The position numbers and the translations under genes are program-made. From Candidatus Omnitrophota bacterium (lineage in GTDB: Bacteria; Omnitrophota; Gorgyraeia; Zapsychrales; Zapsychraceae), in NCBI GenBank assembly GCA_029261055.1, contig JAJDCA010000015.1, positions 19,998 through 83,997 of the forward strand: 64,000 nt of DNA, given 5' to 3'. Below are positions 1 to 22,859 of the stretch, one piece after another (the first letter of the stretch is position 1; each line of letters opens with the position of its first letter). The notes under the pieces are model-generated. The model saw nothing but the letters and a program-made list of their open reading frames with translations. It was not told the DNA's origin and made no database searches.

Positions 1-3000
1 CTCTTGAATAGCTTTACTTTGTTTCGTTAATGCAACAATGCGTGATTCCTTATTCTTACCGACAAACTCTACATTCTTTAACTGTTTTTCATATTCTTTA
101 ATTTTCTCTTCTAAAGGCGCTTTCGCTTGAATAATTTGTGACGGAATCGTAGTCTTTACTTCTTTCAACATATTGGCCATATCAGCTAATTTGTTTTTTA
201 ATAAAATACGGTCCTTTTCGCTTTGACTTAATTGTCCTTGAATGGCTTCCCTTTGTTTTGCCAACTCAACAATACGTGATTCTTTCCCCTTAGAGGCAAA
301 CTCTACATTCTTTAATTGTTTTTCATATCCTTTAATTTTCTTTTCTAAAGGCGCTTTCGCTTGGATAATTTGTGACGGCATCGTAGCCTTTACTTCTTTC
401 AATTCATTGGCCGTATCAGCTAACTTGTTTTTTGATAAAATACGATCCTTTTCGCTTTGACTTAATTGTCTTTGAATGGCTTCCCTTTGTTTTGCCAACT
501 CAACAATACGCAGCTCCTTCTTTTGACGAACGGAGGCTTCTTCTCGTAGTTTATTGGAATATTTCCTTATCTTTTCTTCTAAAGGACCTTTAACTGAGGC
601 TAACTGTTGAATTGAAGTTGACTCCGCTTCTTTCAATTTGGCCTCATACATTTTTATCTTCTCTTCCAAAGGCTTCTTACTTTGTATAATTCTTGCTGGA
701 ATGCTCTCTTCCGATTTTTTTAATCTTTTCTTTGTATCCGCAAGCTCCTCCTGCAATAAATTTTTGGCCTTTGTATTTTGTGCAAGCTTTTTACTAATGC
801 CGGAACTTTCTTCTTTTAATCTTTCTAACACTTCTTCTTTGGCATTAATCGAAAGTTTAGATATTTTTAAATCTGTTTCGTATTTTTTAATTTTTTCTTC
901 TAAAGGTTCTTTAGCTTTGGCAATTTGTGATGGAACAGAAGCCATCGTTTTTTTCACTGTATCGGTGGCACTGGCTAACTCTCTTTGTAATGAAGCCCTT
1001 TCTTCTTTTATTTGAGTTAACTGCTTTTGAATAGCTTCACTTTGCTTCCTTAATGCAACAATTCGTGATTCCTTATCCTGACCCACTAACTCCATATTAT
1101 TTACCCGTTTTTCATATCCTTTAATTCTTTCCTCTAAAGGTGATTTAGCTCGAATAATTTGTGATAGAACAGAGGTCTTCAACTCTTTCAAGGTATCGTT
1201 AGTGTCTGCGAGTTTGTTTTCTAAAAAAACACGATCCTTTTTACTTTGATTTAATTGCACTTGAATACTTGAGCTTTGTTCTGCCAATTCAATAATACGC
1301 TGATCTTTCTTTTCACGAACAGATGATTCGTCTTTCAATTTATTGGCATATTCCTTTATCTTTTCTTCTAACGGCATCTTAGCTTCGACCAATTGTTTGG
1401 CTGTAGCGGCCTCCGCCTCTTTTAATTTAGCTTCATAACTTCTTATCTTCTCCTCCAAAGACGCTTTGATTTTCATAATTTTTGTCGGAATACTTGCTTT
1501 TGTTTCTTTCAATGCTTTCTTCGTATCCGACAACTCTTCCTGTAATAAATCCCGTGTCTTTTCATTCTTTGCCATCTGTTTACGAATATCCGAATGCTCG
1601 CCCTTTAACTTTGCCAATTTTTCTTCTTTAGCATTAATTGAAAGCTCAGATATTTTTAAATCTGATTCATATTCTTTAATCTTTTCTTCCAAGGGCTCCT
1701 TGGCTTTGATAATTTGTAACGGAATAGCGGACTTCAGCTCTTTCAAGGTATCGTCAGTGTCTAAGAATTTATTTTCTAAGAAAATACGGTCTTGTTCAAT
1801 TTGTCTTAATTGTTTTTGAATATTTTCATTTTGTTTTGCCAAATCAACAATGCGTCGTTCCTTTTTTTCACGAATGGATGTTTCATCCTTTAATTTATTG
1901 GCATATTCCTTTATCTTTTCTTCTAACGGCATCTTAGCTTCGACTAATTGTTTAACTGTAGCGGCCTCGGCCTCTTTTAATTTAGCTTCATAACTTCTTA
2001 TCTTCTCCTCCAAAGACGCTTTAATTTGCATAATTTTTGTCGGGATACTTGCTTCTGTTTCTTTCAATGCCTTCTTCGTATCCGCCAACTCTTCCTGTAA
2101 TAAATTCCGTGTCTTTTCATTCTTTGCCATCTGTTTACGAATATCCGAATGCTCGCCCTTTAACTTTGCCAGCTTTTCTTCTTTAGCATTAATTGAAAGC
2201 TCAGATATCTTTAAATCTGATTCATATTCTTTAATCTTTTCTTCCAAGGGTTCCTTGGCTTTGGCAATTTGTGACGGAATAGCGGATTTCAGCTCTGTTA
2301 ATACACCGTTTGTATCTACGAATTTGTTTTCTAACAAAATACGGCCTTGTTCAATTTGTCGTAATTGTTTTTGAATATTTTCATTTTGTTTTGCCAAATC
2401 AACAATGCGTCGTTCCTTCCTTTCACGAATGGATGTTTCATCCTTTAATTTATTGGCATATTCTTTTACCTTTGATTCTAAAGACAACTTAACTTCAGCT
2501 AATTGCTTGCGTGCAGATGCTTCCGATTCTTTTAATTTAACCTCGTAAGCGCTTATCTTGCCTTCCAAAGGTTTTTTGTTTTGCATAATCATTGTCGGAA
2601 TACTTTCTTCTGTTTCTTTTAATTTTCTCTTTGTATCCGCCAATTCCTCCTGCAATAATCCCTGTGTCTGTGTATTTTGTGCAAGCTGCTTACGAATACT
2701 TACATTTTCCTCCTTAAACGTTGCCAACCTTTCTTCCTTAACACCACTCGAAAGCTCAGATGCGTTTAAATCTATTTCATATCTTCTAATTTTTTCCTCA
2801 AGAGGTGACTTGGCTTGCGCAATTTGTGATGGAATAGACGTTTTCAATTCTTTCACCATATCATTGGCATCTTCCAATTTATTTTCTAAAAAAATACGGT
2901 CCATTTCACTTTGATTTAGTTTCTTTTCAATGCTCTCGCTTTGTTGCGCCAACTCAACAATACTCTGCTCTTTCTCTTCACGAGAAGACACTTCGGCTTT

Positions 3001-5838
3001 CAATTCGTTCCTTGCATCCGCCAATTCCTCCTGCAACATTTCCTGTGCCTTTGTATTTTTTACAAGCTGTTCACGAACATCTAAATGAGCTTCCTTTAAG
3101 TTTTCTAACTTCTTTTCTTTAACATCAATCGAAAGCTTAGACATTCTTAAATCTGTTTCATACTTTCTAATCTTTTCTTCTAAAGATTCTTTAGCTTGGA
3201 CAATTTGTGATGGAATAGACGTCTTCAATTCTTTCAGCACATTATTCACATCTGCCAGTTTATTTTCTAAAAAAACATGGCCTTTTTCGCTTTCACTTAA
3301 CTGCTTTTGAATACTTTCGTTTTGCTGTGTTAATTCAATAATACGACGCTCTTTCTTTTCACGCGCGGATGCCTCATTCTTTAACTTATTTTCATGTTCT
3401 TTTACCTGGGCCTTTAACGGCTCCTTAGCGTCAGATACCTGCTTGATAGTCCTCGCCTCTGCTTCTTTCAATTTAGCTTCATAAAACCTTGTCTTCTCTT
3501 CCAATTGTTTACGCATTTCTCGATTATCCGCCTTAAATTTAACCAAATTCTCTTCCTTAGCCTTACGTGAAAATTCATTAACCTTTAAATTTGACTCATA
3601 ATCTTCAATTCGTTCTTCCAAAGGTTCTTTGGCCTTGGCAATCTGCACCGGAATAGATAATTTCACTTTTTCCAATATCCCGTTAGAATCAAATAATTTA
3701 TTTTTCAAAATATCATGTTCTTCTTTGACATAACTTAATTCTTTTTGAATTTTTTCATTCTGTGTTGTTAACGTAATAATACGTGACTCTTTATCCCTGT
3801 CGGTAAGCTGGATATTTTTTAGCTTTCTTTCGTATTCTTCAAGCTTTTCTTCTAAAGGCACTTTAACCTGCATAATTTGTGATGGCACAGACACCTTCAT
3901 TTCTTTCAATAAAGTGTCTGTCTCCGCCAACTTATTCTCTAAGGAATTACGGTCCTTTTGGGTTTGAGTTAATTGGCTCTGAATGCTTTCATTTTGTTTT
4001 GTCAGCTCAGAAATACGCTGCTCTTTAGAAGATTTTGTTTCTTTTAATTTAGCGTCGTGTATTTTGACTTGTTTTTCAAGTGTTTCTGCTTTCTCTTTCA
4101 AATCCGCCGCTACTTTTTCGCTTTGCTGAAATTTATTATCAAGATTTTCTTTTTCTTTTGCTAGCTCATCTAATGCTTTTTCTTTTTCTTTAAGTAACGA
4201 CTTAGTCTCACTCAACTTCTTCCCATAAGTTCGAATCTCATCCTCCAATGGTGATTTGGCTTGAGAAACTTCTTTAAGTAATGTTCTTTCCGCTTTTTTC
4301 AATTTCTTTTGTGCCGTCTCCCATTTTTCTTTAAGAGCCATTCTTGCAACATCACTTTCCTGTAATTTCAAATCAATTGTTTCGCTTTTCACCACAAGTT
4401 CTGAAATCTTTTCTTCCTTTGCCTTACGCATCGACTTTTCGAATTTTACCTCTTCTTCAAGAACACTTATCTTTTGCTCTAGCGGAACTCGCATTTCTGT
4501 AAATTGGGCCGACAGGGTGTTCTTCCTATCCATCAATTTTTCTTTCAGGGTTGCCAATTCTTCTTTTAAGATTTTTTGTTGCCGTTCGCTATCAGACAAC
4601 TGCGACAACTGCTTATCCATATTTTCTTTACTTTCACGTAAAACGGTAAGCTCCGACTCTTGCACCTTCACCAACGCTTCAGCCCTCTTCCATTTGTCTT
4701 CAAGAATAATTTTCTTCTGTTTAGCTTCATTTAATTGTTCACGGACGCTATCATTTTCTGTCTTCAACTTTTGACTCTGAATTTCTTTTTGCTGCACAGA
4801 TACCTTTGTTAACTTTAATTTATCTTTAATAACTTTAATTTCTTCTTCCAACGGAACCTTGACTCTGTTGACTTCATCGCGGAATGACGTCTCTGAATCA
4901 TTAAATTTCCCCCTCACATCTGCCAACTGACTTTCCAATAACGCATTTTTCTGTTGAGCCTTTTTTAACGCTTCATCCGTAGTCTGTTTGGCTTTATCAA
5001 AAGATTTAATACTGCCTTCATTCTCTTGAATGTCTTTTTCCGCTGATTCTAATTTCTTTGTTAAAACCCTAATTTTTGTCTCTAAGGGTAACCGCCCCTC
5101 TTTAACTTTTAGACCGACCGACCTTTTTAATTCTTTCAGCTCACTTTCAAGCAGCGCCAATTCATCATTTAGCTTCGTTTTCTTTTTTTGTAAATCGGAA
5201 ATGTCTCGTGTGGAAGATTGTTGTTTTTTTATTAAGGAATCTAATTCATTTTCTTTTTCTTGGATTATTTCTCGAGAATTATCCAAATTCTTTTCTAAAG
5301 CGAATATTTTTGCCTGAAGAGGAAGCTTAGCTTCATTGACCTTTTCAACAATATTTGTTTCGACAAAGTCAATTTTCTGTTCCAACGGAACCTTAACTTC
5401 TAATAATCTCCGCTGAAATTGGAGTTCCTTTTCTTGAAAACTTCCTCTCAATTCTTTTAATTTTTCAGATAACGACACTCTTTCCTGACGGATACCTGTA
5501 AGCTGATCCAACAACGATTTCTTCTGAAGCTCCAAGTTTTCAATGACGGTATCAGACTCAAAAGAACGGCTGTCGATATCAATCATTTTTTTATGCAGGC
5601 TAAGAACTTCTTTTTCAAGAGAATTCCTTGCCGCATCAAGATCAGCAAGTTCTTGTTGTAGCTGACCTTTATCAGCCCGTAAATTCTGGATAACAAGATT
5701 TCTTCTCTCAATTGTTGCTCTCAGAGATTCTTCGGAATCCAAATCTTTTCCCTGAGCAGAAATAATATTTATCGAAGAAATAATAATAAATGTACTAATG
5801 ATGCATCTGTAAATAAGGGGGGATGTATTAATTTTCAT
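1..5838 (-). CDS. Giant secreted coiled-coil repeat protein, N-terminal >1,945 codons. The C-terminus lies beyond the window start. Not in the supplied ORF track because it is truncated by the window edge.
   Basis: An ATG at 5838..5836 (complement) is followed by a signal-peptide-like N-terminus (MKINTSPLIYRCIISTFIIISSINIISAQG). Minus-strand codon boundaries at 150, 1377 and 1932 share the frame of the ATG at 5838 (all are multiples of 3). The translated units are E/K/L/Q-rich with a recurring (M)PLEEKIKEYE motif. The plus-strand ORFs listed in 242..5317 are low-complexity antisense artefacts. Confidence 0.75.
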   Translation of the reverse strand, partial: MKINTSPLIYRCIISTFIIISSINIISAQGKDLDSEESLRATIERRNLVIQNLRADKGQLQQELADLDAARNSLEKEVLSLHKKMIDIDSRSFESDTVIENLELQKKSLLDQLTGIRQERVSLSEKLKELRGSFQEKELQFQRRLLEVKVPLEQKIDFVETNIVEKVNEAKLPLQAKIFALEKNLDNSREIIQEKENELDSLIKKQQSSTRDISDLQKKKTKLNDELALLESELKELKRSVGLKVKEGRLPLETKIRVLTKKLESAEKDIQENEGSIKSFDKAKQTTDEALKKAQQKNALLESQLADVRGKFNDSETSFRDEVNRVKVPLEEEIKVIKDKLKLTKVSVQQKEIQSQKLKTENDSVREQLNEAKQKKIILEDKWKRAEALVKVQESELTVLRESKENMDKQLSQLSDSERQQKILKEELATLKEKLMDRKNTLSAQFTEMRVPLEQKISVLEEEVKFEKSMRKAKEEKISELVVKSETIDLKLQESDVARMALKEKWETAQKKLKKAERTLLKEVSQAKSPLEDEIRTYGKKLSETKSLLKEKEKALDELAKEKENLDNKFQQSEKVAADLKEKAETLEKQVKIHDAKLKETKSSKEQRISELTKQNESIQSQLTQTQKDRNSLENKLAETDTLLKEMKVSVPSQIMQVKVPLEEKLEEYERKLKNIQLTDRDKESRIITLTTQNEKIQKELSYVKEEHDILKNKLFDSNGILEKVKLSIPVQIAKAKEPLEERIEDYESNLKVNEFSRKAKEENLVKFKADNREMRKQLEEKTRFYEAKLKEAEARTIKQVSDAKEPLKAQVKEHENKLKNEASAREKKERRIIELTQQNESIQKQLSESEKGHVFLENKLADVNNVLKELKTSIPSQIVQAKESLEEKIRKYETDLRMSKLSIDVKEKKLENLKEAHLDVREQLVKNTKAQEMLQEELADARNELKAEVSSREEKEQSIVELAQQSESIEKKLNQSEMDRIFLENKLEDANDMVKELKTSIPSQIAQAKSPLEEKIRRYEIDLNASELSSGVKEERLATFKEENVSIRKQLAQNTQTQGLLQEELADTKRKLKETEESIPTMIMQNKKPLEGKISAYEVKLKESEASARKQLAEVKLSLESKVKEYANKLKDETSIRERKERRIVDLAKQNENIQKQLRQIEQGRILLENKFVDTNGVLTELKSAIPSQIAKAKEPLEEKIKEYESDLKISELSINAKEEKLAKLKGEHSDIRKQMAKNEKTRNLLQEELADTKKALKETEASIPTKIMQIKASLEEKIRSYEAKLKEAEAATVKQLVEAKMPLEEKIKEYANKLKDETSIREKKERRIVDLAKQNENIQKQLRQIEQDRIFLENKFLDTDDTLKELKSAIPLQIIKAKEPLEEKIKEYESDLKISELSINAKEEKLAKLKGEHSDIRKQMAKNEKTRDLLQEELSDTKKALKETKASIPTKIMKIKASLEEKIRSYEAKLKEAEAATAKQLVEAKMPLEEKIKEYANKLKDESSVREKKDQRIIELAEQSSSIQVQLNQSKKDRVFLENKLADTNDTLKELKTSVLSQIIRAKSPLEERIKGYEKRVNNMELVGQDKESRIVALRKQSEAIQKQLTQIKEERASLQRELASATDTVKKTMASVPSQIAKAKEPLEEKIKKYETDLKISKLSINAKEEVLERLKEESSGISKKLAQNTKAKNLLQEELADTKKRLKKSEESIPARIIQSKKPLEEKIKMYEAKLKEAESTSIQQLASVKGPLEEKIRKYSNKLREEASVRQKKELRIVELAKQREAIQRQLSQSEKDRILSKNKLADTANELKEVKATMPSQIIQAKAPLEKKIKGYEKQLKNVEFASKGKESRIVELAKQREAIQGQLSQSEKDRILLKNKLADMANMLKEVKTTIPSQIIQAKAPLEEKIKEYEKQLKNVEFVGKNKESRIVALTKQSKAIQE
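1322..2431 (-). repeat. Two near-identical tandem 555-bp (185-codon) coding repeats inside the giant coiled-coil gene. Degenerate copies of the same unit, and of a shorter ~237-bp sub-unit, occur throughout 1..5000.
   Basis: The MPLEEKIKEY codons recur at 1377 and 1932 (555 bp apart) with almost identical flanking sequence. 'ttctaaaggcgctttcgcttg(a/g)ataatttgtgacgg' recurs at 108 and 345. Confidence 0.8.
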
Positions 5839-6652
5839 AGGACCTTTTCTTTCTTTCTAATAATTCGACTATTTTTTTTAATTTAACTTTTAAATGAACA
5901 ATGGTTTTTTGTAATTTCTTAATTTCAACCTGACTTTTATCTTTTTTCTGAACATCCTGCAATTGTTGATTTTCATGTTTCAATAAAGAATTCTGTAATT
6001 CTAATTTTTTAATTTTTTCTTTGGCTAATTTAAAATCAAGGCTTAATTGTTCATGCTCAGCATCTAAAATCTTTTTTTCATTCAAAAGCTCTGCTAAATT
6101 ATTCGTTAGCGTAAGATAATTGCCCGATAGTTTCTGAAATTGATCAAAAGCCTGCTGCCTATTGGCAGATACCACTCCATCCGGCATAGCAGAACCCTCT
6201 TCGGAAATGCTTACGTCAAGAGTAATCCCGGAGTTTTTTTCCGAAACCTCTTGAACAAGACGACTCTTCTCTGCTTTCCTCTCTTCAGAAACTTTTCTTT
6301 TCTTTTCTTCAACCGTAAATATCTTAACCACCTGACTCCCGACTTGCAGATCCTGAAATTCCATGCGCATGGCAAATTTCCCTTTTCTCCTGGAGGGAAT
6401 CAACTTGGATATGGCACTGGACGTCTCTGCCACCTCTAAATGCGTGATAAAATGCCCCTCCTGATAAATTTCGACGATATCGCCTTTCTTAAGATCCATA
6501 CTGCTAAGATCTGTAAAGGCTATCTTGTATTTTTTGTTAACATTGATAATCTCGCCATAAACTTCTTCCTGGGCAAATACATTCCCGCTAAACCCGACAA
6601 AACAACTAAAAACGAATAGTACGACACTCACATATTTTCTTAAATTTTTCAT
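5828..6652 (-). CDS. Secreted protein with an N-terminal signal peptide, a small beta-rich domain and a C-terminal coiled coil. It sits in an operon immediately upstream of the giant coiled-coil gene.
   Basis: 274-aa ORF. The signal peptide is MKNLRKYVSVVLFVFSCFVGFSGNVFAQ. The C-terminal half is K/E/L/Q-rich heptad-like. Its stop overlaps the giant gene start by about 11 nt. Confidence 0.55.
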   Translation of the reverse strand: MKNLRKYVSVVLFVFSCFVGFSGNVFAQEEVYGEIINVNKKYKIAFTDLSSMDLKKGDIVEIYQEGHFITHLEVAETSSAISKLIPSRRKGKFAMRMEFQDLQVGSQVVKIFTVEEKKRKVSEERKAEKSRLVQEVSEKNSGITLDVSISEEGSAMPDGVVSANRQQAFDQFQKLSGNYLTLTNNLAELLNEKKILDAEHEQLSLDFKLAKEKIKKLELQNSLLKHENQQLQDVQKKDKSQVEIKKLQKTIVHLKVKLKKIVELLERKKRSYEN

Positions 6653-7734
6653 ACCGCAAGATCTCCATTATTCCTTGGATCATGATATTTTTCTTTTAAT
6701 TCTTGAATTTGTGAAGAAATTTCCATAAAGGCCTCTAGCAATTTTGAATCAAAATGCGTTCCGCCACCTTTCTGGATTTCTTCTATGGCTTCCTCACTAG
6801 ACCAGGCTTTCTTATAGGGCCGTGCACTCGTTAAGGCGTCAAAGACATCACATAAACCGCATATGCGTCCTACCAAAGGAATGGCTTCACCTTTAAGCCC
6901 CCCTGGATATCCTGTCCCATCCCATTTTTCATGATGTGTTAAAGCAATTTCTTGGGCGATTTTAAGAAATTCAGAATCACTTCCGTCCAACAATTCAGCT
7001 CCGATGGTTGTATGCGTCTTCATGATCTCCCATTCATTCTCCGTAAGTTTTCCCGGCTTTTGAAGAATACTGTCTGGAATTCCTATTTTACCAATATCAT
7101 GAAGAGGACTGGCTGTTAAAATCATTTCACACTCTTGACCGCTTAAGCCTACTTTTTTCGCAAGACATTCTGAATAATGACTCATCCGAATAATATGCAT
7201 TCCTGTTTCAGAATCACGATATTCTACAGCCCGTGCTAAACGCTGAATAACATCCACTTGTGATTCATAAAGTTTTTGTGTACGATCCTTCACTCTTTGT
7301 TCTAAAACCTTATTTTGATCTTGGATTTCATTATGCAGCATCCGAACCTCAATCATATTCTTAATCCGGATAAGAACTTCTACGCGATCGTAAGGTTTGT
7401 TAAGAAAATCTTTTGCCCCGGACTCAAGCGCACGAAACCGAACTTCCTGATTCTGCTCATCCGATATGACAATAATAGGAAGATACGTATCCCCATCAAT
7501 TTCCTTCAACTGCTCCATAATTTGAAAACCATCCAGATGGGGCATTGTCAAATCTAAAATCAACACTTCTGGTCTAATTTCTTGATAAAGCGCTTTAACC
7601 TGGCGAGGATCCGTTGTTAAGGTAATATTTGTAAAGCCATCTTTTTTTAAAATGGCTTCCAATAGACGAATGCTAATATCTTGATCGTCTACAACAAGTA
7701 TTTTGGCTTGTAAAAGTTTATCCCCATTCATCAC
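6649..7734 (-). CDS. Response regulator: CheY-like receiver plus HD-GYP c-di-GMP phosphodiesterase (RpfG-like).
   Basis: N-terminal receiver (ILVVDDQDISIRLLEAIL...LILDLTMPHLDG). C-terminal HD-GYP motifs (HDIGKIGIPDSIL, HHEKWDGTGYPGGLKGEAIP). Confidence 0.85.
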   Translation of the reverse strand: MMNGDKLLQAKILVVDDQDISIRLLEAILKKDGFTNITLTTDPRQVKALYQEIRPEVLILDLTMPHLDGFQIMEQLKEIDGDTYLPIIVISDEQNQEVRFRALESGAKDFLNKPYDRVEVLIRIKNMIEVRMLHNEIQDQNKVLEQRVKDRTQKLYESQVDVIQRLARAVEYRDSETGMHIIRMSHYSECLAKKVGLSGQECEMILTASPLHDIGKIGIPDSILQKPGKLTENEWEIMKTHTTIGAELLDGSDSEFLKIAQEIALTHHEKWDGTGYPGGLKGEAIPLVGRICGLCDVFDALTSARPYKKAWSSEEAIEEIQKGGGTHFDSKLLEAFMEISSQIQELKEKYHDPRNNGDLAV

Positions 7735-8486
7735 TTTAAAGAAAAACCCCTCATTTTTTCAAGAAATGTGTAATCTGTTGAATCACTATGGATAGGCGTT
7801 ACGGTAACATAATTATCGTTGAGATAATACGTGTCACTTTGATCATTCTTCTTTTTTCCAGGTAACTTCCCGGCCATCCAATAATATTCACGCAAATTTG
7901 GATCACGACGTTTACGAAAAGTGCCATGAATCGGCTTCAATCCCTGACGTACCATGCGAATACCTTTAATCTGAGAAGGTTTTACATGAGGCACATTCAC
8001 ATTAAGAAATGTTCCTTTAGGGATGTTTTTGTTACCGAATGACTGAACTAATTTCGCTCCGCATTTAGCGGCATAACTAAAATCTGCATCGCCAAACGTA
8101 TTTAATGATATGGCCAACGCAGGAATCCCAAGCAAAGCTCCTTCACGGGCACCGGCCACTGTTCCTGAATAAAAAACACTGCACCCTTCATTCGGCCCTA
8201 AATTAATCCCAGAAACAACCACATCCGGTTTCTTTTTGAGAAGAACACTGGTCGCAAACTTCACACAATCGGCAGGCGTTCCACTAATACCCGTCCCAAA
8301 AAAACGACCCTTACGCTTAACCCTACTATGCCAAAGCGGATGTGCCAATGTAATCCCATGGCCAACCGAACTCTTCTGCGTATCCGGAGCAACTATTGTA
8401 ATGGAACCTAACTTCTTCAATTCCAAGTACAAAGCATAAATCCCCTCTGCATAAATCCCATCATCATTCGTCAAAAGTATGTGCAT
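7731..8486 (-). CDS. surE: 5'/3'-nucleotidase SurE.
   Basis: The N-terminal MHILLTNDDGIYAEGIYAL motif and the length (251 aa) are typical of SurE. Its stop overlaps the downstream HD-GYP regulator start. Confidence 0.85.
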   Translation of the reverse strand: MHILLTNDDGIYAEGIYALYLELKKLGSITIVAPDTQKSSVGHGITLAHPLWHSRVKRKGRFFGTGISGTPADCVKFATSVLLKKKPDVVVSGINLGPNEGCSVFYSGTVAGAREGALLGIPALAISLNTFGDADFSYAAKCGAKLVQSFGNKNIPKGTFLNVNVPHVKPSQIKGIRMVRQGLKPIHGTFRKRRDPNLREYYWMAGKLPGKKKNDQSDTYYLNDNYVTVTPIHSDSTDYTFLEKMRGFSLK

Positions 8487-8531
8487 AAGGAGATACTATA
8501 TCATAATGTTATTATTGTTTCTAGCGTCTTT

Positions 8532-9374
8532 TTAAGTAGAATGCGCTTTGACTACGGTAGGCTGGGGCCGGCTTTTTTTGAGAAAAAAGACGATGGTGCT
8601 CAAATAAAGAACATAACTCACAACTTCAATCAATGATGGATTGCCGTTGTAGCCGAATAAGGCCTTAAGAAAAGAACCAATGCCTTGCTTTTCATTAAGG
8701 ATATGATTGATGTTCCAAACCGGAGCGTGGATTTCGGGGATGAGGTGAATTTCCTGAAGTTCATGAATACCGTAAGCAAGGAGACCTGCGGCAATTAAAA
8801 GTAAAAAGGCTCCACTGACACGAAAAAGTTTTCTAACAGGAACGCGTTTGCCTCCCATAAAAATAGCCGCTGCAATAAATACGGCCAATGCAAAACCTGC
8901 CAACCCTCCGACTGCGGAGACTGCATTTGAATTTCGTGCGGACATCGCGGTTAAAAATAATACTGTTTCTGCGCCTTCACGAAAAATGGCAAAAAATGGC
9001 AGACTAACAATAGCCATGTATTCGCTGTGGGTGATCGCAACTTCCATTTTAGACTCAATCGTACCCTTAATTTTTTTCGACTGACTATTCATCCAAAAAA
9101 CCATGTAGGTTAAAATACCGCACGCAATAAGCGAAATACCCCCTTCAATTAATTTTTCCGCACCTCCCTTAGCTGATTCTGTCAATGACATCAAACCTAT
9201 CCCAGCCATGATACTCACTCCAATCGCCACAAAAGAACTCACAAACACATGGATAAAATATTTTTTCTGATGCATCCTCGCTAACACTGTCAGAATAATC
9301 CCGATAACTAAACTGGCCTCGAGAGTTTCGCGAAACATAATAATAAATGTGGTAAAAATTGCGCCTGCGTCCAT
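8532..9374 (-). CDS. High-affinity iron permease, FTR1/EfeU family. The start is probably the internal Met (MDAGAIF) at 9374 rather than the track start at 9440.
   Basis: Two REXXE motifs (FRETLEAS, FREGAETVLFL) in a polytopic membrane protein. The 22 upstream codons of the track ORF lie inside an intergenic hairpin-repeat element. Confidence 0.7.
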   Translation of the reverse strand: MDAGAIFTTFIIMFRETLEASLVIGIILTVLARMHQKKYFIHVFVSSFVAIGVSIMAGIGLMSLTESAKGGAEKLIEGGISLIACGILTYMVFWMNSQSKKIKGTIESKMEVAITHSEYMAIVSLPFFAIFREGAETVLFLTAMSARNSNAVSAVGGLAGFALAVFIAAAIFMGGKRVPVRKLFRVSGAFLLLIAAGLLAYGIHELQEIHLIPEIHAPVWNINHILNEKQGIGSFLKALFGYNGNPSLIEVVSYVLYLSTIVFFLKKSRPQPTVVKAHST

Positions 9375-9384
9375 GTATTTTTCT

Positions 9385-9556
9385 CCTTGCTTTTTAAAAG
9401 AAGCAAAGTTGCAAGAAACAAGATGCAAAGAAAAAAGCAAAAATCAAAATCTTTTTTTGTTTCTTTACTTCTTACCTCTTGCCTTTTACTTCTTACTTTT
9501 CTATCTCTTAACTTTTTCTCTGCTTCTCATTTCTTTGCCTCTTACTTCTTTACTCA
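9385..9556. repeat. Purine-arm/pyrimidine-arm imperfect inverted-repeat element (AGAAGTAAGAG / CTCTTACTTCT family), copy 1.
   Basis: A purine-rich arm (aaagaagcaaagttgcaagaaacaagatgcaaagaaaaaagc...) is followed by a ~105-nt almost pure-pyrimidine tract (ctttacttcttacctcttgccttttacttcttac...). It lies between the tonB stop and the FTR1 start. Confidence 0.55.
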
Positions 9557-10143
9557 ACTAATCTAAATTCTACCGGAACGGTAATCTGTGATGAAAATGT
9601 CAAGTCGCCGGATTGCGCCGGTGAAAATTTCCAATTTTGAACCGTGCTTAATGCTGCTTCATCTAAAATTTTGTATCCCGAATTTTTTTCAATTTCAACC
9701 CGTGAAGCCATCCCATCCTTCGTAACAAACACACGTAAAATAACCACCCCTTCCCAACCACGCCGTCGGGCAACCCGCGGATACGCAGGTGCCGGATTAA
9801 TGTAATCTAAAGGTTTTGCCTCCACTTCCGCCCCTTTGGATTCATGACTTTCCACGACAATAGGCTCTACCTCCTCAACAGGCTTTTCTACCTTTTCCTC
9901 TACAGGTGGTTGATAAACTTCCGGTGAAGGTTCTATAGTCTCTTCAATGGCCACTACTTTTTCATATTCAATAACTTCTTCAATTTCCGGAACAGGTGGC
10001 TCTTCAACAAAAACCATCTCTAACGTATTCGGCGCCTGCAAAACAGCCATCTGCGGCGATGTCGGCATAAACTGCCCTGCACCTAAAACAGCTAAGTGTC
10101 CAGACAATGACAAAAATAATATCGGCATAAAAGCATCTTTCAT
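9550..10143 (-). CDS. tonB: Energy transducer TonB.
   Basis: A Pro/Glu-rich spacer (EEPPVPEIEEVIEYEKV...PVEEKVEKPVEE) and a TonB C-terminal domain (YPRVARRRGWEGVVILRVFVTKDGMASRVEIEKNSGYKILDEAALSTVQNWKFSP). Confidence 0.75.
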   Translation of the reverse strand: MKDAFMPILFLSLSGHLAVLGAGQFMPTSPQMAVLQAPNTLEMVFVEEPPVPEIEEVIEYEKVVAIEETIEPSPEVYQPPVEEKVEKPVEEVEPIVVESHESKGAEVEAKPLDYINPAPAYPRVARRRGWEGVVILRVFVTKDGMASRVEIEKNSGYKILDEAALSTVQNWKFSPAQSGDLTFSSQITVPVEFRLVE

Positions 10144-10541
10144 GGCGAATCCCTTTGGTGCACAATATTCACCTGTTGCGCTCCGGCTTGCCGGGCTACA
10201 TCCATCACCTCAACAAAATAATGATACGGCATATTTTGATCGCCACGTACATGAACAGAATTTTTGCCCGACTGCGCAAATTGCTTTTGCAAGTCTGCCT
10301 TCAGTGCTGCCATGGAAGTTTCTGTATCATTTAAAAAAAGGGCACCTTCCTGATCGATACTCACCACAATATGTTCTTGCGGAATATTGTCGTCAGCCAT
10401 CGCCTTGGGTAAATCCAACTTCATGGCTGGATTGGCAAACGTGGAGGTCAACATAAAAAACACCAAGAGCTGAAAAACAACATCAATCAACGGTGCCATA
10501 TCAATACTTAATTTAGGTTTTCGTGTACGTATGAGTTCCAT
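10140..10541 (-). CDS. exbD: Biopolymer transport protein ExbD/TolR.
   Basis: 133 aa with a single N-terminal TM segment (MAPLIDVVFQLLVFFMLTSTF) and an ExbD-type periplasmic domain. Overlaps tonB. Confidence 0.8.
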   Translation of the reverse strand: MELIRTRKPKLSIDMAPLIDVVFQLLVFFMLTSTFANPAMKLDLPKAMADDNIPQEHIVVSIDQEGALFLNDTETSMAALKADLQKQFAQSGKNSVHVRGDQNMPYHYFVEVMDVARQAGAQQVNIVHQRDSP

Positions 10542-10576
10542 ATTAGGCGTTGTCCAAGTTATTTTTGGACAATTTC

Positions 10577-11257
10577 TTATTGTGTTACGTTAATTTTCTC
10601 ATTTTCTGCTTCCGGATTAGCCGCCTTAAAATCATGCGCCGTGGGTTGTCCAAAATATTCATCTAACTCAGAAACAATGCCTTGCATACGTCGGGCAATA
10701 CGATCAGCACGACTTTCAAATCCATGGTAGGCCACCATGCACGGAATGGCTACAATCAAACCAAAAACAGTACTTAATAAAGCTTCCCATATGCCTCCAG
10801 CCAAACTTTGCACCTGCACCTGACCGGCCGATAATTCGATTTGATGAAATGCCATCACCAAACCGGCCACCGTACCCAACAATCCTAATAACGGCGCAAT
10901 ATGTGTAATCGTTGCTAAGCCCCTTAAACGACGCTCAACTTTTTCAATAGCCATAGACCCTTCACGACTCAAAACACTATCCCGAAGTTTGTGACGAAGA
11001 TGCTGCAAATAAATACCGGCAATACGCGCAACCGGATTTCGGAATTTATGACAATACCCTACAGCTTCCTCTTGTTTACCTGAACGCAATAAATTAAACA
11101 GTTTCTGACTGAACCCTGCATAATTAATGTGCAGCCGTGAAAAATAATACAGCCTTTCCATGATGATGGCCGTACCGATAACCGAGCACACAAAGAGCGG
11201 CCAACGTGTCAGTCCCGCCTTAGTAAACAAATCCGATAAATTTTGAAACCAATGCAT
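10577..11257 (-). CDS. exbB: MotA/TolQ/ExbB proton-channel protein.
   Basis: 226 aa with three TM segments, a conserved ExbB C-terminal core (LATITHIAPLLGLLGTVAGLVMAF) and exbBD-tonB gene order. Confidence 0.8.
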   Translation of the reverse strand: MHWFQNLSDLFTKAGLTRWPLFVCSVIGTAIIMERLYYFSRLHINYAGFSQKLFNLLRSGKQEEAVGYCHKFRNPVARIAGIYLQHLRHKLRDSVLSREGSMAIEKVERRLRGLATITHIAPLLGLLGTVAGLVMAFHQIELSAGQVQVQSLAGGIWEALLSTVFGLIVAIPCMVAYHGFESRADRIARRMQGIVSELDEYFGQPTAHDFKAANPEAENEKINVTQ

Positions 11258-11280
11258 TGTAACCCTCCGTTCTTAATGAT

Positions 11281-11416
11281 GCAGAGAAGTAAAGAAACAA
11301 GAAGTAGAGATAAAAACAAAAAATTAAATTCACTCTTCTACTTCTCTACTTCTTACTTCTCTGCATCTCTCCTTCTTATTTCTCTGCTTCTTGCCTCTCT
11401 ATTTCTTACTTCTTAA
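11281..11416. repeat. Purine-arm/pyrimidine-arm inverted-repeat element, copy 2, between the TonB-dependent receptor stop and the exbB start.
   Basis: gcagagaagtaaagaaacaagaagtagagataaaaac, then a loop, then tcttctacttctctacttcttacttctctgcatctctcc.... gcagagaagta (11281-11291) pairs with tacttctctgc (11356-11366). Confidence 0.55.
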
Positions 11417-13671
11417 AACACTACCTCCATCCCAAACGTCGCCGTAAACGGTTTTCCCGGTCGTGGTCCATGAGGATGGCGAGAAACGATGTATTCAAGA
11501 TCTCCCACATTATGAAGATTCGCTAGCACTTTAGCATTTTTAGTTAGATTGTAATGTCCGGACACATCCACAACAAAAAATTCATCTGTCTTGCCGAAAC
11601 GGGCATCCGGCGTGGTGCCGTCGGCTTGTAACTGTGCATCGACATTATTGGCTGTTGTAAATGTTTCAGGAACATAAGACCCATCCACAAAAACGCCCCA
11701 TTTTTCAAATTCTAATCCTGTCCCCACACTAAACTGCACTTCAGGAACATACGGGACTTTATTCCCATCCTTGCCTCCACTAAAAATTGATTCGGCATCT
11801 GTCGAATTCGAATCCCCATCAAGCTCAGCATTCGTGTAGGTTAGCGCTAAATAATAAGGGTTTTTAAACGCTTTTTCATTAGCAATCCCAAAATCATATT
11901 GAGCCTTAAATTCTAGGCCCTGGGAAACCACCTTACCAATATTTTCACTGTCACCGGTTCCACCGCCCCCGATATTATCCTTGACCAAAAGATCATCAAA
12001 GTTAGTATGAAAATACGTCAGTTCTGTACTCAAGGCATCACTCTTCTTCCATCGAAGACCAAGTTCTTTTGTTAAACTTGTTTCCTCATCTAAATCAGAT
12101 TTGGCATTATCTCTCGGCCCTGGAACAGAAAATCCTTGATGCACACCTCCAAAAGCCGATAGCTCATCGGAAAACACATATTGCAAACCTGCGCCCCCAG
12201 CAAAGGCTGTAATGTCCGAACTATCTTGCGCAGTAATAACTCCAGGCGTAACCCCTCCTGTACTGAAATCAACAAATTCGTATTGGACATGCTCATACCG
12301 AAAACCTGGCGTAAATGTCCATGCCCCCCAATCAATATTATCGCGCAGATAACTTGAAATAGAGATAGACTCTTGCCGTCGATTACCGGCTGTACCCGGC
12401 GCACTCGATGAAATCCCCGTGATCACGCCACTCGCATCTTGCGTGTAGGTATCAGTGTTTTGATCCCGTCGGACATAATCTTGATGAAAACCGAGCCCCC
12501 ATTCAATATCATGCGTAAAATCTCCAGTGGTTAAATCAAAGTTTACATTATTAAGAAGACCCCACTGGGCATACTCTCTATTATTATTACGTACATCAAA
12601 CGTGCCCGCGGCTGTACCGCGCATAACATCAAGGGCAGCTCCCCCCGAGGCTAGAACGCTTGAAAGACTACTCCCCGAAACACTTTGCAACTTAGACCAA
12701 TTACGTTGAAACTCATTGTAATAACCAGTCAATGTAACCATGGCATGTTCATTTAATTCTGTACCGTAACGCAAATAACTGCGCGATTGCCGTGTTTGAA
12801 TATTGTCAAAACGTGTAGCCGCATAACGACGATAAGGATTGTCATCAAAGTCAGATTCCGTTAACCCTAAATAGGTTTCATTAGCATCTAAGTCCGTGTA
12901 ACCAAATTTTCCTTCTACCTTCTGATACCGCAAGGTTTCCGGCGAACTTTCCCAGGAAAGCTTTAACATCGGCTCTGATTTAGTAAAACCTGTATCCCCC
13001 CCATCAGTAAAATCGGCCGTAGTATCTATTACCTTAAATCCATCATTTGACCGATAATATTCTTCTAATAAATATCCAATACGTCCAAAACTTGTATCCA
13101 TCGTATCCCCGACATAGGCATGGACCCGACCTTCTTCATTGTCACCATAAAGGCCTTTCAAATAAAATTGTTGTTTTTTGGGAATAGGCGTGGAAAGATA
13201 ATTGACCACCCCACCGGTAGTATGTGGACCATATTTAACCTGGCTGGAACCTTTTAAAACCTCAATCTTATTCATGCGTCCTGCCGTTGGTGAATAATAA
13301 GCCGAAGGTGCAGAATAAGGAGCCGGTGCCGCTGTCACACCATCCTCCATCAAAGTTACCTTTTGGCTACGCCCCACATCCACTCCACGCAAACTGATAT
13401 TAGGAAATAACCCATGACCATCTTCTTCTCTTAAATAGACACCTGGAATTTTTCGCAAAATGCGATTCACATCATCGTAACTATGTTTGCGAATATCTGA
13501 CACACTTACACTGTCACCTGATCCAGGTAACGAGGCTTCGCCTTCTTTAGATCCCAAAACGGTCACAACATTCAAGGCATAATTCTGCCGATCCTCGGCC
13601 TCGGCCATCGTTGCGACCCCCAATAAAATTACGCCTAATCCACAAGCCATTCGTAAATTTTTAAATCTCAT
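11413..13671 (-). CDS. TonB-dependent outer-membrane receptor, probably for a siderophore or metal.
   Basis: 752 aa with an N-terminal signal peptide, a plug region and a beta-barrel with a C-terminal aromatic residue (...GMEVVF). It sits downstream of a Fur-box-like palindrome and upstream of exbB-exbD-tonB. Confidence 0.85.
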   Translation of the reverse strand: MRFKNLRMACGLGVILLGVATMAEAEDRQNYALNVVTVLGSKEGEASLPGSGDSVSVSDIRKHSYDDVNRILRKIPGVYLREEDGHGLFPNISLRGVDVGRSQKVTLMEDGVTAAPAPYSAPSAYYSPTAGRMNKIEVLKGSSQVKYGPHTTGGVVNYLSTPIPKKQQFYLKGLYGDNEEGRVHAYVGDTMDTSFGRIGYLLEEYYRSNDGFKVIDTTADFTDGGDTGFTKSEPMLKLSWESSPETLRYQKVEGKFGYTDLDANETYLGLTESDFDDNPYRRYAATRFDNIQTRQSRSYLRYGTELNEHAMVTLTGYYNEFQRNWSKLQSVSGSSLSSVLASGGAALDVMRGTAAGTFDVRNNNREYAQWGLLNNVNFDLTTGDFTHDIEWGLGFHQDYVRRDQNTDTYTQDASGVITGISSSAPGTAGNRRQESISISSYLRDNIDWGAWTFTPGFRYEHVQYEFVDFSTGGVTPGVITAQDSSDITAFAGGAGLQYVFSDELSAFGGVHQGFSVPGPRDNAKSDLDEETSLTKELGLRWKKSDALSTELTYFHTNFDDLLVKDNIGGGGTGDSENIGKVVSQGLEFKAQYDFGIANEKAFKNPYYLALTYTNAELDGDSNSTDAESIFSGGKDGNKVPYVPEVQFSVGTGLEFEKWGVFVDGSYVPETFTTANNVDAQLQADGTTPDARFGKTDEFFVVDVSGHYNLTKNAKVLANLHNVGDLEYIVSRHPHGPRPGKPFTATFGMEVVF

Positions 13672-13761
13672 TTCTTTCTCCTAAAACTGTTTGATCGATT
13701 ATTTTAATTTAACCTACTAGCCCCTCATAAAACCAATTTTTTATTCTCTCTCCTTTCTAAA

Positions 13762-13923
13762 TTATTGGGCGTTGGATTCTCGATCTCGAGCCTCAGGTGT
13801 TAACTCACATAAAGGGATCACATGAATTCTTTTGCAACGGTGACATTTAAATTCAATCCCCTTAGGCGTCTTTTTTAAAAGAAGTTTTCCACATTCACAA
13901 CGTTCATCTACACATATTTCCAT
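13762..13923 (-). CDS. Small (53 aa) Com-like zinc-ribbon protein. Below the 60-aa cut-off of the ORF track.
   Basis: The translation MEICVDERCECGKLLLKKTPKGIEFKCHRCKRIHVIPLCELTPEARDRESNAQ has CxC...CxxC spacing and KLLxK/IEFKCxRCKR motifs that closely resemble the phage Mu Com zinc-ribbon family. It lies between the Fur-box palindrome and the receptor gene. Confidence 0.45.
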   Translation of the reverse strand: MEICVDERCECGKLLLKKTPKGIEFKCHRCKRIHVIPLCELTPEARDRESNAQ

Positions 13924-13998
13924 GATTAACCTTTTTCCTGAACATGAAATTCATTTTCACAATTGATTTAAAAAATTTTGCCGGATAAGCCGGCTCGT

Positions 13999-14025
13999 TG
14001 AAAATGAAAACCATTTTCATTTTCA
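13999..14025. promoter_or_regulatory. Fur-box-like 27-bp palindrome (TGAAAATGAAAAC-C-ATTTTCATTTTCA) in the promoter region of the Com-like/TonB-dependent receptor operon.
   Basis: A near-perfect 13-1-13 inverted repeat built from GAAAAT hexamers, which are one mismatch from the GATAAT Fur hexamer. A second, smaller ATGAAATTCAT palindrome lies at 13943..13960. fur is the adjacent gene. Confidence 0.5.
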
Positions 14026-14037
14026 TAGCAAAAAAAT

Positions 14038-21293: not shown

Positions 21294-22859
21294 ATGAAAA
21301 AAATATTTTATTCACTCACATTTATATTAACGCTGTCATTTGCTATAACAGCACAAGCTGAACAGCTTCAGCTTACAACCTACTATCCTGCTCCTTATGG
21401 AGCATACGACAAGCTACTTCTGGTTCCACGCACCCCTTTGAGCGGTAGCTGCCAGACAGGTACGCTTTATATGGAAGACATAGGTAATGGCGATGGAGAA
21501 ATAAGACTTTGTGATAAAGGAATCTGGGCTCCTATTTCAGGCCATTGGAAGCAAGAAAACGATGATATCTTTTTAGTCGATACAGCAACAAACCCTGATT
21601 TATTTGTAGGTATTGGAACCACTAATCCAGGTGCTCGCCTTTCGGTACAAGGCTACGGGAACAGCGCAACAACAGCCAGTCTCAATATGACAAACAGTGA
21701 TGGAAACAGCATACTGTATGCCAGAGATGACAGAAATGTCGGCATTGGAACAACCAACCCTTCAGCGAATTTAGATATTAATAACAATGGCGACCTTACA
21801 GGGGATCCTCTTGGCAGTAATTTATGGTTTCGCCTTTCCGGTGGATCCACCATTGATCACGGACGTATTTGGGCTCAATATTCCAACACTCAAGCTCCTA
21901 TTCTCGTTATGGAAGATGATGACGACCCTTCACGCATTCAATTTCAACAGGTAGGTACAGGCACAGAGTCAACGCCAGAGTTTGTCAGCTGGGTCGGTAT
22001 GGGGAAAAAGAATTCCAGTGACATTGCCCTTATGGGAGGAAAAGTCGGTATCGGTACCACTGACCCTTTAAGTAATCTGCACATCAAAGCGCCTTCGCCA
22101 TCTATAATTTTAGAAAGAGAAGATAATGCCCAAGCAGCTGCTCTAGCATTTTTTCCTAATGGGGCTATTTCCCCTACAAACATGTATTGGGCCATGGGGC
22201 TCAATCTAAATAGTAACCATTTTGTTATCGCTAATGATAGCAACACATCCTTTCCTAACAACATAAGATTTACCATTAAAGATGACGGTAAAGTCGCTAT
22301 GGGAGGAAATCATATTCCCCAAACTGATCTGCATATAAAGGGAAATGGTGTGCTTAGATTAGAAGATACTAGCGTAGCAATAGACTTCATAAATGAGAAT
22401 TCTGGTGACGATAATTTTAGTATTGCTTCTTGGGGCGGAAGTAAAGATATGCTCAGATTTCGATCTAACAAAGATGGAACTTGGGACGATATTGTCCAGT
22501 TTGAAAGTGATGGCGATGTATGGGTCGAAGATGATGTAACGGCCGATGAATACAAAACACATTCTGACGTTCGCCTTAAAAAAAATATCCTACCACTGAC
22601 AGACGCGCTCTCACGTGTGACACAGCTCCGTGGTGTTAACTACCAATGGAGAGATACCGATAAAGATCAAGGAAAAATTCAAATGGGTCTCATCGCTCAG
22701 GAAGTAGAAGAAGTATTTCCTGAAGTCGTTTCAACTGACGAAGACGGATTCAAATCTGTAGCCTATAGTAAACTTGTTGCTGCTTTGATCGAAGCTGTTA
22801 AAGAATTAAAAGCAGAAAATGATGATCTTAAATTGAGGATTGAGAAAATAGAAAAATAA
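21294..22859 (+). CDS. Secreted fibre/adhesin-like protein with IGTTxP-type repeats and a C-terminal S74 intramolecular-chaperone auto-processing domain (phage tail-spike type).
   Basis: Signal peptide MKKIFYSLTFILTLSFAITAQA. Repeated (V/I)GIGTT(N/D)P motifs. The C-terminal ~125 aa (HSDVRLKKNILPL...GLIAQEVEEVFPEVV...LIEAVKELKAENDDLKL) match the conserved core of the peptidase S74 chaperone domain, spanning roughly 22485..22856. Confidence 0.65.
   Translation: MKKIFYSLTFILTLSFAITAQAEQLQLTTYYPAPYGAYDKLLLVPRTPLSGSCQTGTLYMEDIGNGDGEIRLCDKGIWAPISGHWKQENDDIFLVDTATNPDLFVGIGTTNPGARLSVQGYGNSATTASLNMTNSDGNSILYARDDRNVGIGTTNPSANLDINNNGDLTGDPLGSNLWFRLSGGSTIDHGRIWAQYSNTQAPILVMEDDDDPSRIQFQQVGTGTESTPEFVSWVGMGKKNSSDIALMGGKVGIGTTDPLSNLHIKAPSPSIILEREDNAQAAALAFFPNGAISPTNMYWAMGLNLNSNHFVIANDSNTSFPNNIRFTIKDDGKVAMGGNHIPQTDLHIKGNGVLRLEDTSVAIDFINENSGDDNFSIASWGGSKDMLRFRSNKDGTWDDIVQFESDGDVWVEDDVTADEYKTHSDVRLKKNILPLTDALSRVTQLRGVNYQWRDTDKDQGKIQMGLIAQEVEEVFPEVVSTDEDGFKSVAYSKLVAALIEAVKELKAENDDLKLRIEKIEK

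Follow-up and report, generated by a model that had tools for sequence, protein, structure and literature searches.

A giant, predicted exported coiled-coil protein of Omnitrophota built on a proline-punctuated repeat and encoded beside a conserved partner

At the left end of a 64,000-nucleotide stretch of contig JAJDCA010000015.1 from a Candidatus Omnitrophota bacterium (assembly GCA_029261055.1, positions 19,998 to 83,997; this whole stretch is here called the window), four minus-strand genes overlap in a row that ends in a giant gene for a repetitive coiled-coil protein. Omnitrophota are widespread, almost wholly uncultured and often ultra-small and host-dependent, and the construction of their envelope is barely known. 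The row is headed by surE, which encodes a member of the 5′/3′-nucleotidase family (7731..8486; Pfam SurE, 7.3e-59). It is followed by a response regulator of the RpfG type with REC and HD-GYP domains (6649..7734), a gene for a 274-residue protein that we call the partner (5828..6652), and the 5′ part of the giant gene (1..5838). The surE stop codon and the GTG start of the regulator share 7731..7734, whereas an alternative ATG one codon downstream would give a 1-nucleotide (nt) overlap. The regulator stop and the ATG of the partner gene share ATGA at 6649..6652, and the partner stop and the giant start share 11 nt, ATGAAAATTAA, at 5828..5838. The tight overlap of the four genes at three junctions is as given in a preliminary description of this DNA.

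The giant gene starts with an ATG at 5838 and its frame runs to position 1 through 1,946 codons, according to the translation of the window. An in-frame stop was looked for throughout 1..5838 and none was found, so the single very long open reading frame with an N-terminal signal peptide that had been proposed stands. The frame leaves the window at the left edge, and hence the C-terminus of the protein lies beyond it. Residues 1-28 (5755..5838) form a predicted signal peptide, recognized by eye as MKINTSPLIYRCIISTFIIISSINIISA followed by QG; it has a basic n-region, a hydrophobic core and an I-S-A cleavage site, lacks a lipobox and contains the sole Cys of the visible protein. Residues 29-150 (5389..5754), ahead of the first PLE motif, constitute a conserved head, as found by alignment with the homologue P0009 (homologous proteins carry P numbers here and the loci examined L numbers). 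The stretch of the head best kept in P0009 is LEKEVLSLHKKMIDIDS...LQKKSLLDQLTGIRQE, and the N-terminal 400 residues of the two proteins are collinear from the signal peptide onward (E=6e-37). The giant consists of 16.0% K, 14.7% E, 11.6% L, 7.7% S, 7.0% I, 6.9% A and 6.8% Q, and its hydrophobic periodicity peaks at 3.54 residues.

Repeat design and recent amplification

The repeat unit was described by two profiles, A1, built from fourteen 78-residue units of the window giant only, and A2, a 59-sequence alignment of the unit across the family. Against A2 the visible giant scores 894 bits with 30 repeat domains. It contains 25 (P/S)L(E)xK(I) motifs, and 15 of the 24 intervals between them are exactly 78 residues long and four are 29 residues long. 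The K/E/L/Q-rich, heptad-like chain punctuated by a periodic PLEEKI-type motif that was noticed earlier is therefore confirmed, and it is predicted to be helical throughout. Over 89 instances the motif consensus is L-K-x-L-K-x-S-I-P-x-K-I-x-x-A-K-x-P-L-E-E-K-I-x-x-L-E, with two invariant prolines nine residues apart; ten full double-proline motifs occur in the window giant. The hydrophobic columns of A2 follow a regular 3-4 heptad spacing over most of the unit and show two 4-4 steps at the prolines. Because of these two steps, the 22-residue double-proline motif is read from the alignment as two consecutive hendecads, i.e. as two stutters. In this arithmetic 78 residues are 8 heptads plus 22 residues, 29 are 1 plus 22, 71 are 7 plus 22, and 127 are 15 plus 22. 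In the family as a whole, the length is 1 mod 7 for 100 of the 120 motif intervals that do not exceed 140 residues; these intervals are related by ancestry and not independent of each other. A rod of modular length, in which the units keep a length of 1 mod 7 even though their sequences have diverged to about 25% identity, would represent a new coiled-coil design.

I, V and L are frequent at heptad position a, except that two of the a positions conserve K, R or N; position d carries chiefly L. According to the rules of Harbury and Woolfson such an a/d core pattern is typical of parallel dimers. Since the residue pattern fits the Harbury rules, a dimer is favored and the giant is probably a parallel two-stranded coiled coil. 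A single-sequence AlphaFold2 (AF2) model of residues 1181-1580 is wholly helical with a mean predicted local distance difference test score (pLDDT) of 84, and its helices pass through the proline motifs. With a rise of 0.1485 nm per residue, the rod formed by the visible giant would measure at least about 285 nm and that of P0009 about 610 nm, with about 11.6 nm for each 78-residue unit. Proline-punctuated amphipathic repeats of the apolipoprotein kind were also considered; the 3.54-residue period and the clean a/d pattern, which is not the 11/3 lipid-binding pattern, ruled them out.

At the DNA level the units fall into an older and a younger part. The older, diverged units (residues 151-1011, 2806..5388) have motif spacings of 22, 78, 78, 123, 78, 131, 78, 68, 78 and 127 residues, and identity at a lag of 555 nt across this segment is at the background level of 20-40%. 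The younger block (residues 1012-1946, 1..2805), delimited by motif register and unit comparison, comprises four super-units of 185 residues (78+29+78) and extra 78-residue units, and its super-units share 71-88% DNA identity in motif register. Self-comparison of the whole gene gave the best match at a lag of 555 nt and the second at 234 nt. Tandem Repeats Finder reported a 234-nt (78-codon) array of 2.2 copies with 89% matches at 3..510 and a 381-nt array at 2631..3363 (76%). The two most alike 555-nt copies lie at 1322..2431. Pairwise comparison of 1322-1876 with 1877-2431 gave 92.97% identity with 39 mismatches in 555 nt, a longest identical run of 65 nt, and 86-97% identity per 111-nt window between 1333 and 1887. 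These two 185-codon units had been called almost identical; they are highly similar, at 93%, and approach identity only in patches.

For 14 of 15 units in the window the best match is in the same protein, with a mean identity of 64% compared to 33% with other proteins, which bears out the earlier suggestion of recent repeat expansion. Within P0009, P0003 and P0004 the units are just 21-29% identical to each other. Because nearly all window units are closest to units of their own protein while unit length and motif outlast the sequence, we regard the architecture of the giant as old and the block 1..2805 as a recent, lineage-specific amplification, as judged from these comparisons.

Repeats of this kind raise the question of whether the gene is an assembly artefact or a noncoding repeat. 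The window ends inside the repeat block, most homologues in the databases are partial and stop at contig ends, and two relatives on long-read contigs bear frameshifts; genes of this giant family often break assemblies. Against such an origin stand the 1,946 stop-free codons in sequence of 35% GC, the same periodicity in a conserved family from independent assemblies, and the differences between the copies, which lack any exact run above 65 nt. With a difference about every 14 nt between the copies, collapse or duplication during assembly is unlikely, and the concern that the repeat identity might be an artefact, raised in the preliminary description, is not borne out by copies that mismatch at 39 of 555 positions. 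Overall we consider an artefact or a noncoding repeat very improbable.

Family, partner protein and gene neighborhood

A hidden Markov model search of 1.84 billion representative proteins with A1 returned 49 proteins with E<=1e-3, of which 16 reached E<=1e-10 and 5 reached E<=1e-30. By this size, which comes from one profile search of coiled-coil sequences, the family is rare. The top matches carry 18-38 repeats, and P0001-P0004 were matched at E=9e-92 to 2e-66 by this profile of window units only. Family members are 0.8-4.1 thousand residues long; examples are P0001 (1,738 residues, 24 matched stretches), P0002 (1,323 residues), P0003 (2,823 residues), P0004 (1,870 residues) and P0009 (4,143 residues, 38 stretches). 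The window giant shares with them multiple profile copies, units of 1 mod 7 residues, a signal peptide followed by the head, and a partner gene upstream. All members with a named source come from metagenome-assembled genomes (MAGs) of Candidatus Omnitrophota or Omnitrophica. A predicted signal peptide is present at every complete N-terminus (P0050, P0002, P0004, P0009, P0010 and P0047). Complete C-termini share an L..VK.EL..AMELI(K) peptide, with Lys as the last residue in four of eight complete homologues (P0003, P0005, P0009 and P0012; not in P0001, P0014, P0021 and P0041), and no globular C-terminal domain was found in the complete members.

Searches against known families gave nothing beyond generic coiled coil. 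The giant stayed below the Pfam gathering scores of Tropomyosin (PF00261; 22.9 vs 38.6 bits), Rod_CreS (17.7 vs 100 bits) and Myosin_tail, and the Pfam family Filament was under its cut-off in a homologue. In P0009 and P0003 Pfam found nothing, and its coiled-coil matches in P0050 were all sub-threshold. PHROG contained no match to the giant, and PDB sequence searches with the giant and with the repeat profile returned generic coiled coils only. The statement that the giant belongs to no known family thus holds for Pfam, NCBIfam, PHROG and the PDB. A word-indexed protein search with the whole giant, A1 and A2 gave nothing at E<=1e-3, which reflects a limit of the index rather than absence since the exhaustive profile search did find the family. 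A metagenome scan with a DNA pattern for two motifs yielded 15 loci, none of which matched the family profile at E<=1e-3; the only locus with several matches (L082 2737..5621, four matches) encodes a low-complexity F/P/S-rich repeat unrelated to the family. The same pattern gave 0 matches in the IMG/VR viral scan. A phage tape measure or fiber protein was rejected as a candidate, there being neither a PHROG family nor an IMG/VR match. As seen so far, the family appears specific to Omnitrophota and is covered by no curated family.

The database names of the family point elsewhere in three cases. All source-named members are called hypothetical protein except P0009, recorded as Exonuclease SbcC, and P0010 and P0025, recorded as chromosome segregation ATPase. 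If these names were right the giant would be a cytoplasmic chromosome protein like SMC, Rad50 or SbcC, and NCBIfam SMC/Rad50 models do match homologues with E-values down to 5e-59, while Foldseek with the rod model retrieved Rad50, MukB and Smc arms as its best and only matches. These matches are confined to the coiled-coil arms and far under the cut-offs (53 bits for the window giant and 200 bits for P0009 against 567), and the Foldseek TM-scores do not exceed 0.39. By Pfam there is no ATPase head, hinge or zinc hook in the visible giant or in the complete members. Because the matches cover arms only and the proteins bear signal peptides, the labels are best explained as coiled-coil artefacts and need correcting, and we give almost no credence to a chromosomal role.

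Directly upstream of the giant lies the 274-residue partner, which combines a signal peptide (residues 1-27), a beta-rich N-terminal domain (about 28-113), a variable linker and a C-terminal helix of about 110 residues. The preliminary description of a secreted coiled-coil protein was right about the signal peptide and the coiled coil, but the protein is more than that, being a conserved partner with a novel N-terminal beta domain. Alignment A5 of four full sequences (the window partner and three homologues) gave the N-domain signature GEIINVNxKYKIAFTDLSS..GDIVEI..LEVSExSxAISKLI..GK..F..VG..VVKI, and all four have a signal peptide, a variable linker and a coiled coil of about 100 residues that finishes in KAYE. 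A protein of 246-292 residues is encoded directly upstream of the giant, often overlapping its start, at L100 (giant P0009), L097/L098/L096 (P0001/P0050), L099 (P0002), L101 (P0003) and L104 (P0004, split by frameshifts). A profile of the N-domain detects the partner beside the giant in six genomes (window, L097, L099, L100, L101 and L104), among which the L101 and L104 copies were outside the profile-building set; the window partner scores 153 bits. Neither Pfam nor the PDB has a match for the N-domain, and a PDB search with the partner gave generic coiled-coil matches only, e.g. BST2/tetherin for the helix. In an AF2 model computed without an alignment, helix 161-273 has a pLDDT above 90 and the N-domain one below 50. 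We describe the N-domain as a novel beta domain by prediction. Since two of the four leaders contain no Cys, the partner is not generally a lipoprotein.

The gene arrangement proved stronger than first seen, since further Omnitrophota genomes share it. In six of nine contexts surE immediately precedes the module (window, L100, L101, L104, L103 and L001), and an orthologous HD-GYP regulator is found in three of nine (window, L103 and L001). The window has the order surE, regulator, partner, giant. L103 and L001 have surE, regulator and giant; the L001 product is a secreted protein of 813 residues with the same motifs, in which A2 recognizes 8-14 domains (E of about 1e-8 to 1e-9). L100, L101 and L104 have surE, partner and giant and no regulator, and L097, L099 and L102 have no surE nearby. 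Three further loci have the surE-regulator pair but no giant, namely L002 (next to citrate synthase) and L008 and L036 (next to a hybrid histidine kinase). Among the best 80 regulator loci surE is directly upstream only in four Omnitrophota (L001, L002, L008 and L036) and not in the other 76, which belong to other phyla. It appears that surE, with or without the regulator, belongs to a housekeeping row extending to citrate synthase and PepA, and that the module occupies a variable slot in this row.

The regulator itself scores above the Pfam cut-offs for Response_reg (3.4e-24) and HD_5 (1.9e-36) and carries the motifs DD and LILD (REC acidic residues), HDIGK and HHEKWDGTGYP, so by its motifs it looks like a competent RpfG-type enzyme. 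It is 67% and 61% identical to the L103 and L001 regulators, both of which occupy the same position, and its best relatives are from Omnitrophota MAGs (61% and 57% identity). A metabolic basis for the pairing with surE is plausible, cyclic di-GMP (c-di-GMP) being broken down to GMP which the nucleotidase would then dephosphorylate. The row is likely co-expressed in the window genome. Control of the giant by the c-di-GMP phosphodiesterase, as had been proposed, does not follow: the regulator is an enzyme and not a transcription factor, the pair occurs without the giant, and three genomes keep surE, partner and giant without it. The adjacency argument is further weakened because HD-GYP genes are frequent in the window genome. 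A second HD-GYP protein (GAF + HD_5) is encoded at 26088..27266 on the minus strand. Among the recurrent neighbors in the relatives is a second HD_5 protein, encoded downstream in L097 and L101. A promoter and terminator scan of 5600-14200 gave counts equal to those of shuffled sequence.

An iron-uptake row (8532..13671) of TonB-dependent receptor, ExbB, ExbD, TonB and FTR1 permease immediately precedes surE on the minus strand, and L100 has Fur-ExbB-ExbD upstream of surE. Exact copies of the window partner, the regulator (with either start) and ExbD were absent from the protein records. Directly downstream of the P0001/P0050 giant, L097 (15239..18037; also L096 5516..5938) carries a set of genes like those for ribosomally synthesized and post-translationally modified peptides, with a transglutaminase-like core3 protein, PqqD and a radical SAM/SPASM enzyme.

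Cell location and possible function

We estimate a probability of about one half that the giant and its partner form an Omnitrophota-specific module in which a Sec-exported rod and partner make up an envelope fiber, with the periplasm as its default location. The complete members have no beta-barrel, T9SS (type IX secretion), PEP-CTERM, LPXTG or RTX element, and their C-termini are helical and polar without a terminal aromatic residue. Since no element for translocation across, or anchoring in, the outer membrane was recognized in these complete members, the periplasm is the default compartment in a diderm, and the length of the rod means that it would have to run along the wall. Genes for cell-surface polysaccharides near three members (L101, L097 and L102) also fit an envelope role. 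In the proposed mechanism the two-gene module would give two Sec-exported proteins, with the partner made in step with the giant through translational coupling. The giant would form a continuous α-helical rod, each unit consisting of n heptads and a 22-residue two-hendecad segment. The coiled coil of the partner is probably what binds the rod, and the beta domain of the partner would anchor, cap, link or nucleate the fiber, which would lie along the wall in the periplasm in a manner resembling CrvAB. The strict unit length suggests, by analogy with other rods, staggered packing or periodic binding sites. Rod length would evolve by gain of repeats, very recently so in this lineage. Co-transcription of the window row would switch on fiber production together with c-di-GMP breakdown by the phosphorylation-activated HD-GYP phosphodiesterase. 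An exported two-protein fiber module would be a concrete target in cryo-tomograms and metaproteomes, for example through its 11.6-nm axial repeat.

Several observations weigh against this reading. A rod of 285-610 nm far exceeds the width of the periplasm, and we know of no such periplasmic protein. All signal peptides, in the window and in the homologues, were judged by eye. The AF2 model of the rod folds back once near its middle, although as a monomer model it is silent on the oligomer. At L001, L102 and L103, which hold the most diverged giants, no partner gene adjoins, and the motif is missing from the weak tail of the 49 profile matches, which probably consists of generic coiled coils. 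The C-terminus of the window giant lies outside the window, so an extra domain is possible in this particular protein. Finally, type II secretion pseudopilin G/J/K and PilMN genes occur 4-9 kb upstream of P0001 (in L097 only), and other Omnitrophota giants have been read as secreted effectors or adhesins, with loci resembling the type II secretion system (T2SS) nearby (bioRxiv 10.1101/2023.11.21.568195).

These T2SS genes and this view of other giants would fit a fiber that crosses the outer membrane, e.g. by a T2SS-like route. At the surface or in secreted form it could attach the cell to host or prey as an adhesin or tether, or be a fibril associated with a capsule or S-layer, with the partner as anchor or usher. 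The Sec signal peptide of the giant and the ultra-small, host-dependent character of Omnitrophota (PMC10066038) are compatible with this, and a rod of hundreds of nanometers fits outside the cell more easily than in the periplasm. A T2SSE ATPase gene is found near P0010, and polysaccharide export or assembly genes adjoin three members: L101 has a WecA-like glycosyltransferase of family GT4, Wza, Wzc and Wzy_C, L097 has ABC-2 and GT4 genes, and L102 has Wzy_C, an epimerase and UDP-glucose dehydrogenase. On the other side, the complete members carry no recognizable secretion or anchoring signal, T2SS genes accompany the giant in only one or two of nine contexts, and the most constant neighbor is surE, a housekeeping gene. 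The extracellular fiber, spinae or S-layer component of the preliminary description is accordingly not the default; export to the surface is the main alternative, and we hold it to be the less probable location.

The conserved extreme C-terminus of an exported coiled coil, ending in Lys in half of the complete homologues, also brings to mind a periplasmic tether or spacer of the Lpp or Omp-alpha type that would connect the outer membrane with either peptidoglycan or the inner membrane and define envelope geometry, perhaps with attachment through the C-terminal peptide. Braun lipoprotein is cross-linked to peptidoglycan via its C-terminal Lys. The other half of these homologues do not end in Lys, the giant has no lipobox and two of the four partner leaders no Cys, and the rod exceeds any periplasmic width by a factor of 10-30. 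A tether of this type is thus improbable.

A bolder form of the periplasmic fiber would be a single-molecule hoop or ruler, in which members of 120-610 nm offer docking sites every 11.6 nm for the partner beta domain or the wall, gain and loss of repeats tunes cell size or shape, and production is coupled to the c-di-GMP phosphodiesterase and surE. Because most Omnitrophota are ultra-small (PMC10066038), the longer rods could match the cell girth. We regard this version as speculative and unlikely; if true, it would be a new kind of determinant of bacterial cell size or shape, with an undescribed coiled-coil design.

The system that comes closest in function to an exported coiled coil and its partner beside a c-di-GMP enzyme is CrvA/CrvB of Vibrio cholerae, a periskeletal two-protein filament that is periplasmic and assembles without nucleotide energy (bioRxiv 10.1101/2020.02.20.954503; PMC7695739). 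Both systems have two adjacent genes with exported products, and c-di-GMP regulates cell shape in V. cholerae (bioRxiv 10.1101/2020.04.15.043257). The likeness is one of architecture, drawn from the cited papers and not from sequences, and the location of the present proteins is predicted. CrvA and CrvB are of ordinary size and paralogous to each other, whereas the Omnitrophota module joins two unrelated architectures, one of them with 0.8-4.1 thousand residues, and neither the 78-residue double-proline period nor the partner beta domain has a counterpart in the cited CrvAB descriptions.

Other long coiled coils share individual traits with the giant. Crescentin and intermediate-filament-like proteins (Rod_CreS, Filament) are likewise long heptad rods with stutters and give weak Pfam matches, but they are cytoplasmic and have no signal peptide or 78-residue unit, and the giant stays below their gathering scores. 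The SMC, Rad50, SbcC and MukB proteins also have very long helical arms, but the giant has no heads, hinge or zinc hook and is predicted to be exported. Trimeric autotransporter stalks, Staphylothermus tetrabrachion and Thermotoga Omp-alpha are exported envelope or surface coiled coils that mix heptads and hendecads. The core of the giant suggests a dimer rather than their trimers or tetramers, the partner is a separate protein, and the YadA-type beta-barrel of trimeric autotransporters is missing from the complete family members (the C-terminus of the window giant being outside the window). The myosin rod and tropomyosin are, like the rod proposed here, two-stranded with the register shifted by one residue at regular intervals; they are eukaryotic and cytoplasmic and use single skip residues, whereas the giant shifts by two adjacent stutters with prolines nine residues apart. 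An exported bacterial coiled-coil fiber with a partner is a known kind of system, and what is new here is the family, the proline-flanked hendecad design, the partner domain and the linkage to surE.

Other giant proteins of the phylum also come from very long genes and frequently have signal peptides and repeats (bioRxiv 10.1101/2023.11.21.568195; bioRxiv 10.64898/2026.06.07.730766). The giants catalogued in these two surveys belong to multi-enzyme, beta-helix, dockerin, lectin, NHL, TSP3, WD and HEAT classes, and the word "coiled" is absent from both. The window giant differs in that its family has no Pfam domain and in its recent nucleotide-level amplification, which is reported to be uncommon (bioRxiv 10.64898/2026.06.07.730766). 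A possible link to magnetotactic Omnitrophota through the HQL17 and HQL19 locus-tag series was considered and dropped; no magnetosome gene was seen in the window.

Other features of the window

The cumulative GC skew has a minimum at about 38000..42000, where predominantly minus-strand genes give way to predominantly plus-strand ones. A replication origin would fit this pattern, as would mere strand bias; no dnaA was seen in the window. The minus strand also encodes a second giant product, an RHS/TcdB-like polymorphic toxin of 2,903 residues (31346..40057) with FG-GAP, RHS repeats, LamG, Big_9 and pretoxin-HINT segments, adjoined by an rve-type integrase gene (40337..41617). On the plus strand, a 521-residue protein (21294..22859) ends in Peptidase_S74, an endosialidase-type intramolecular chaperone of phage tail fibers and some surface fibers; the next open reading frame (22887..24023) has no Pfam match. 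A plus-strand gene at 46183..50037 encodes a 1,284-residue fusion of a GT4 glycosyltransferase, a type I phosphodiesterase-like segment and a C-terminal endonuclease/exonuclease/phosphatase domain, which is an unusual combination.

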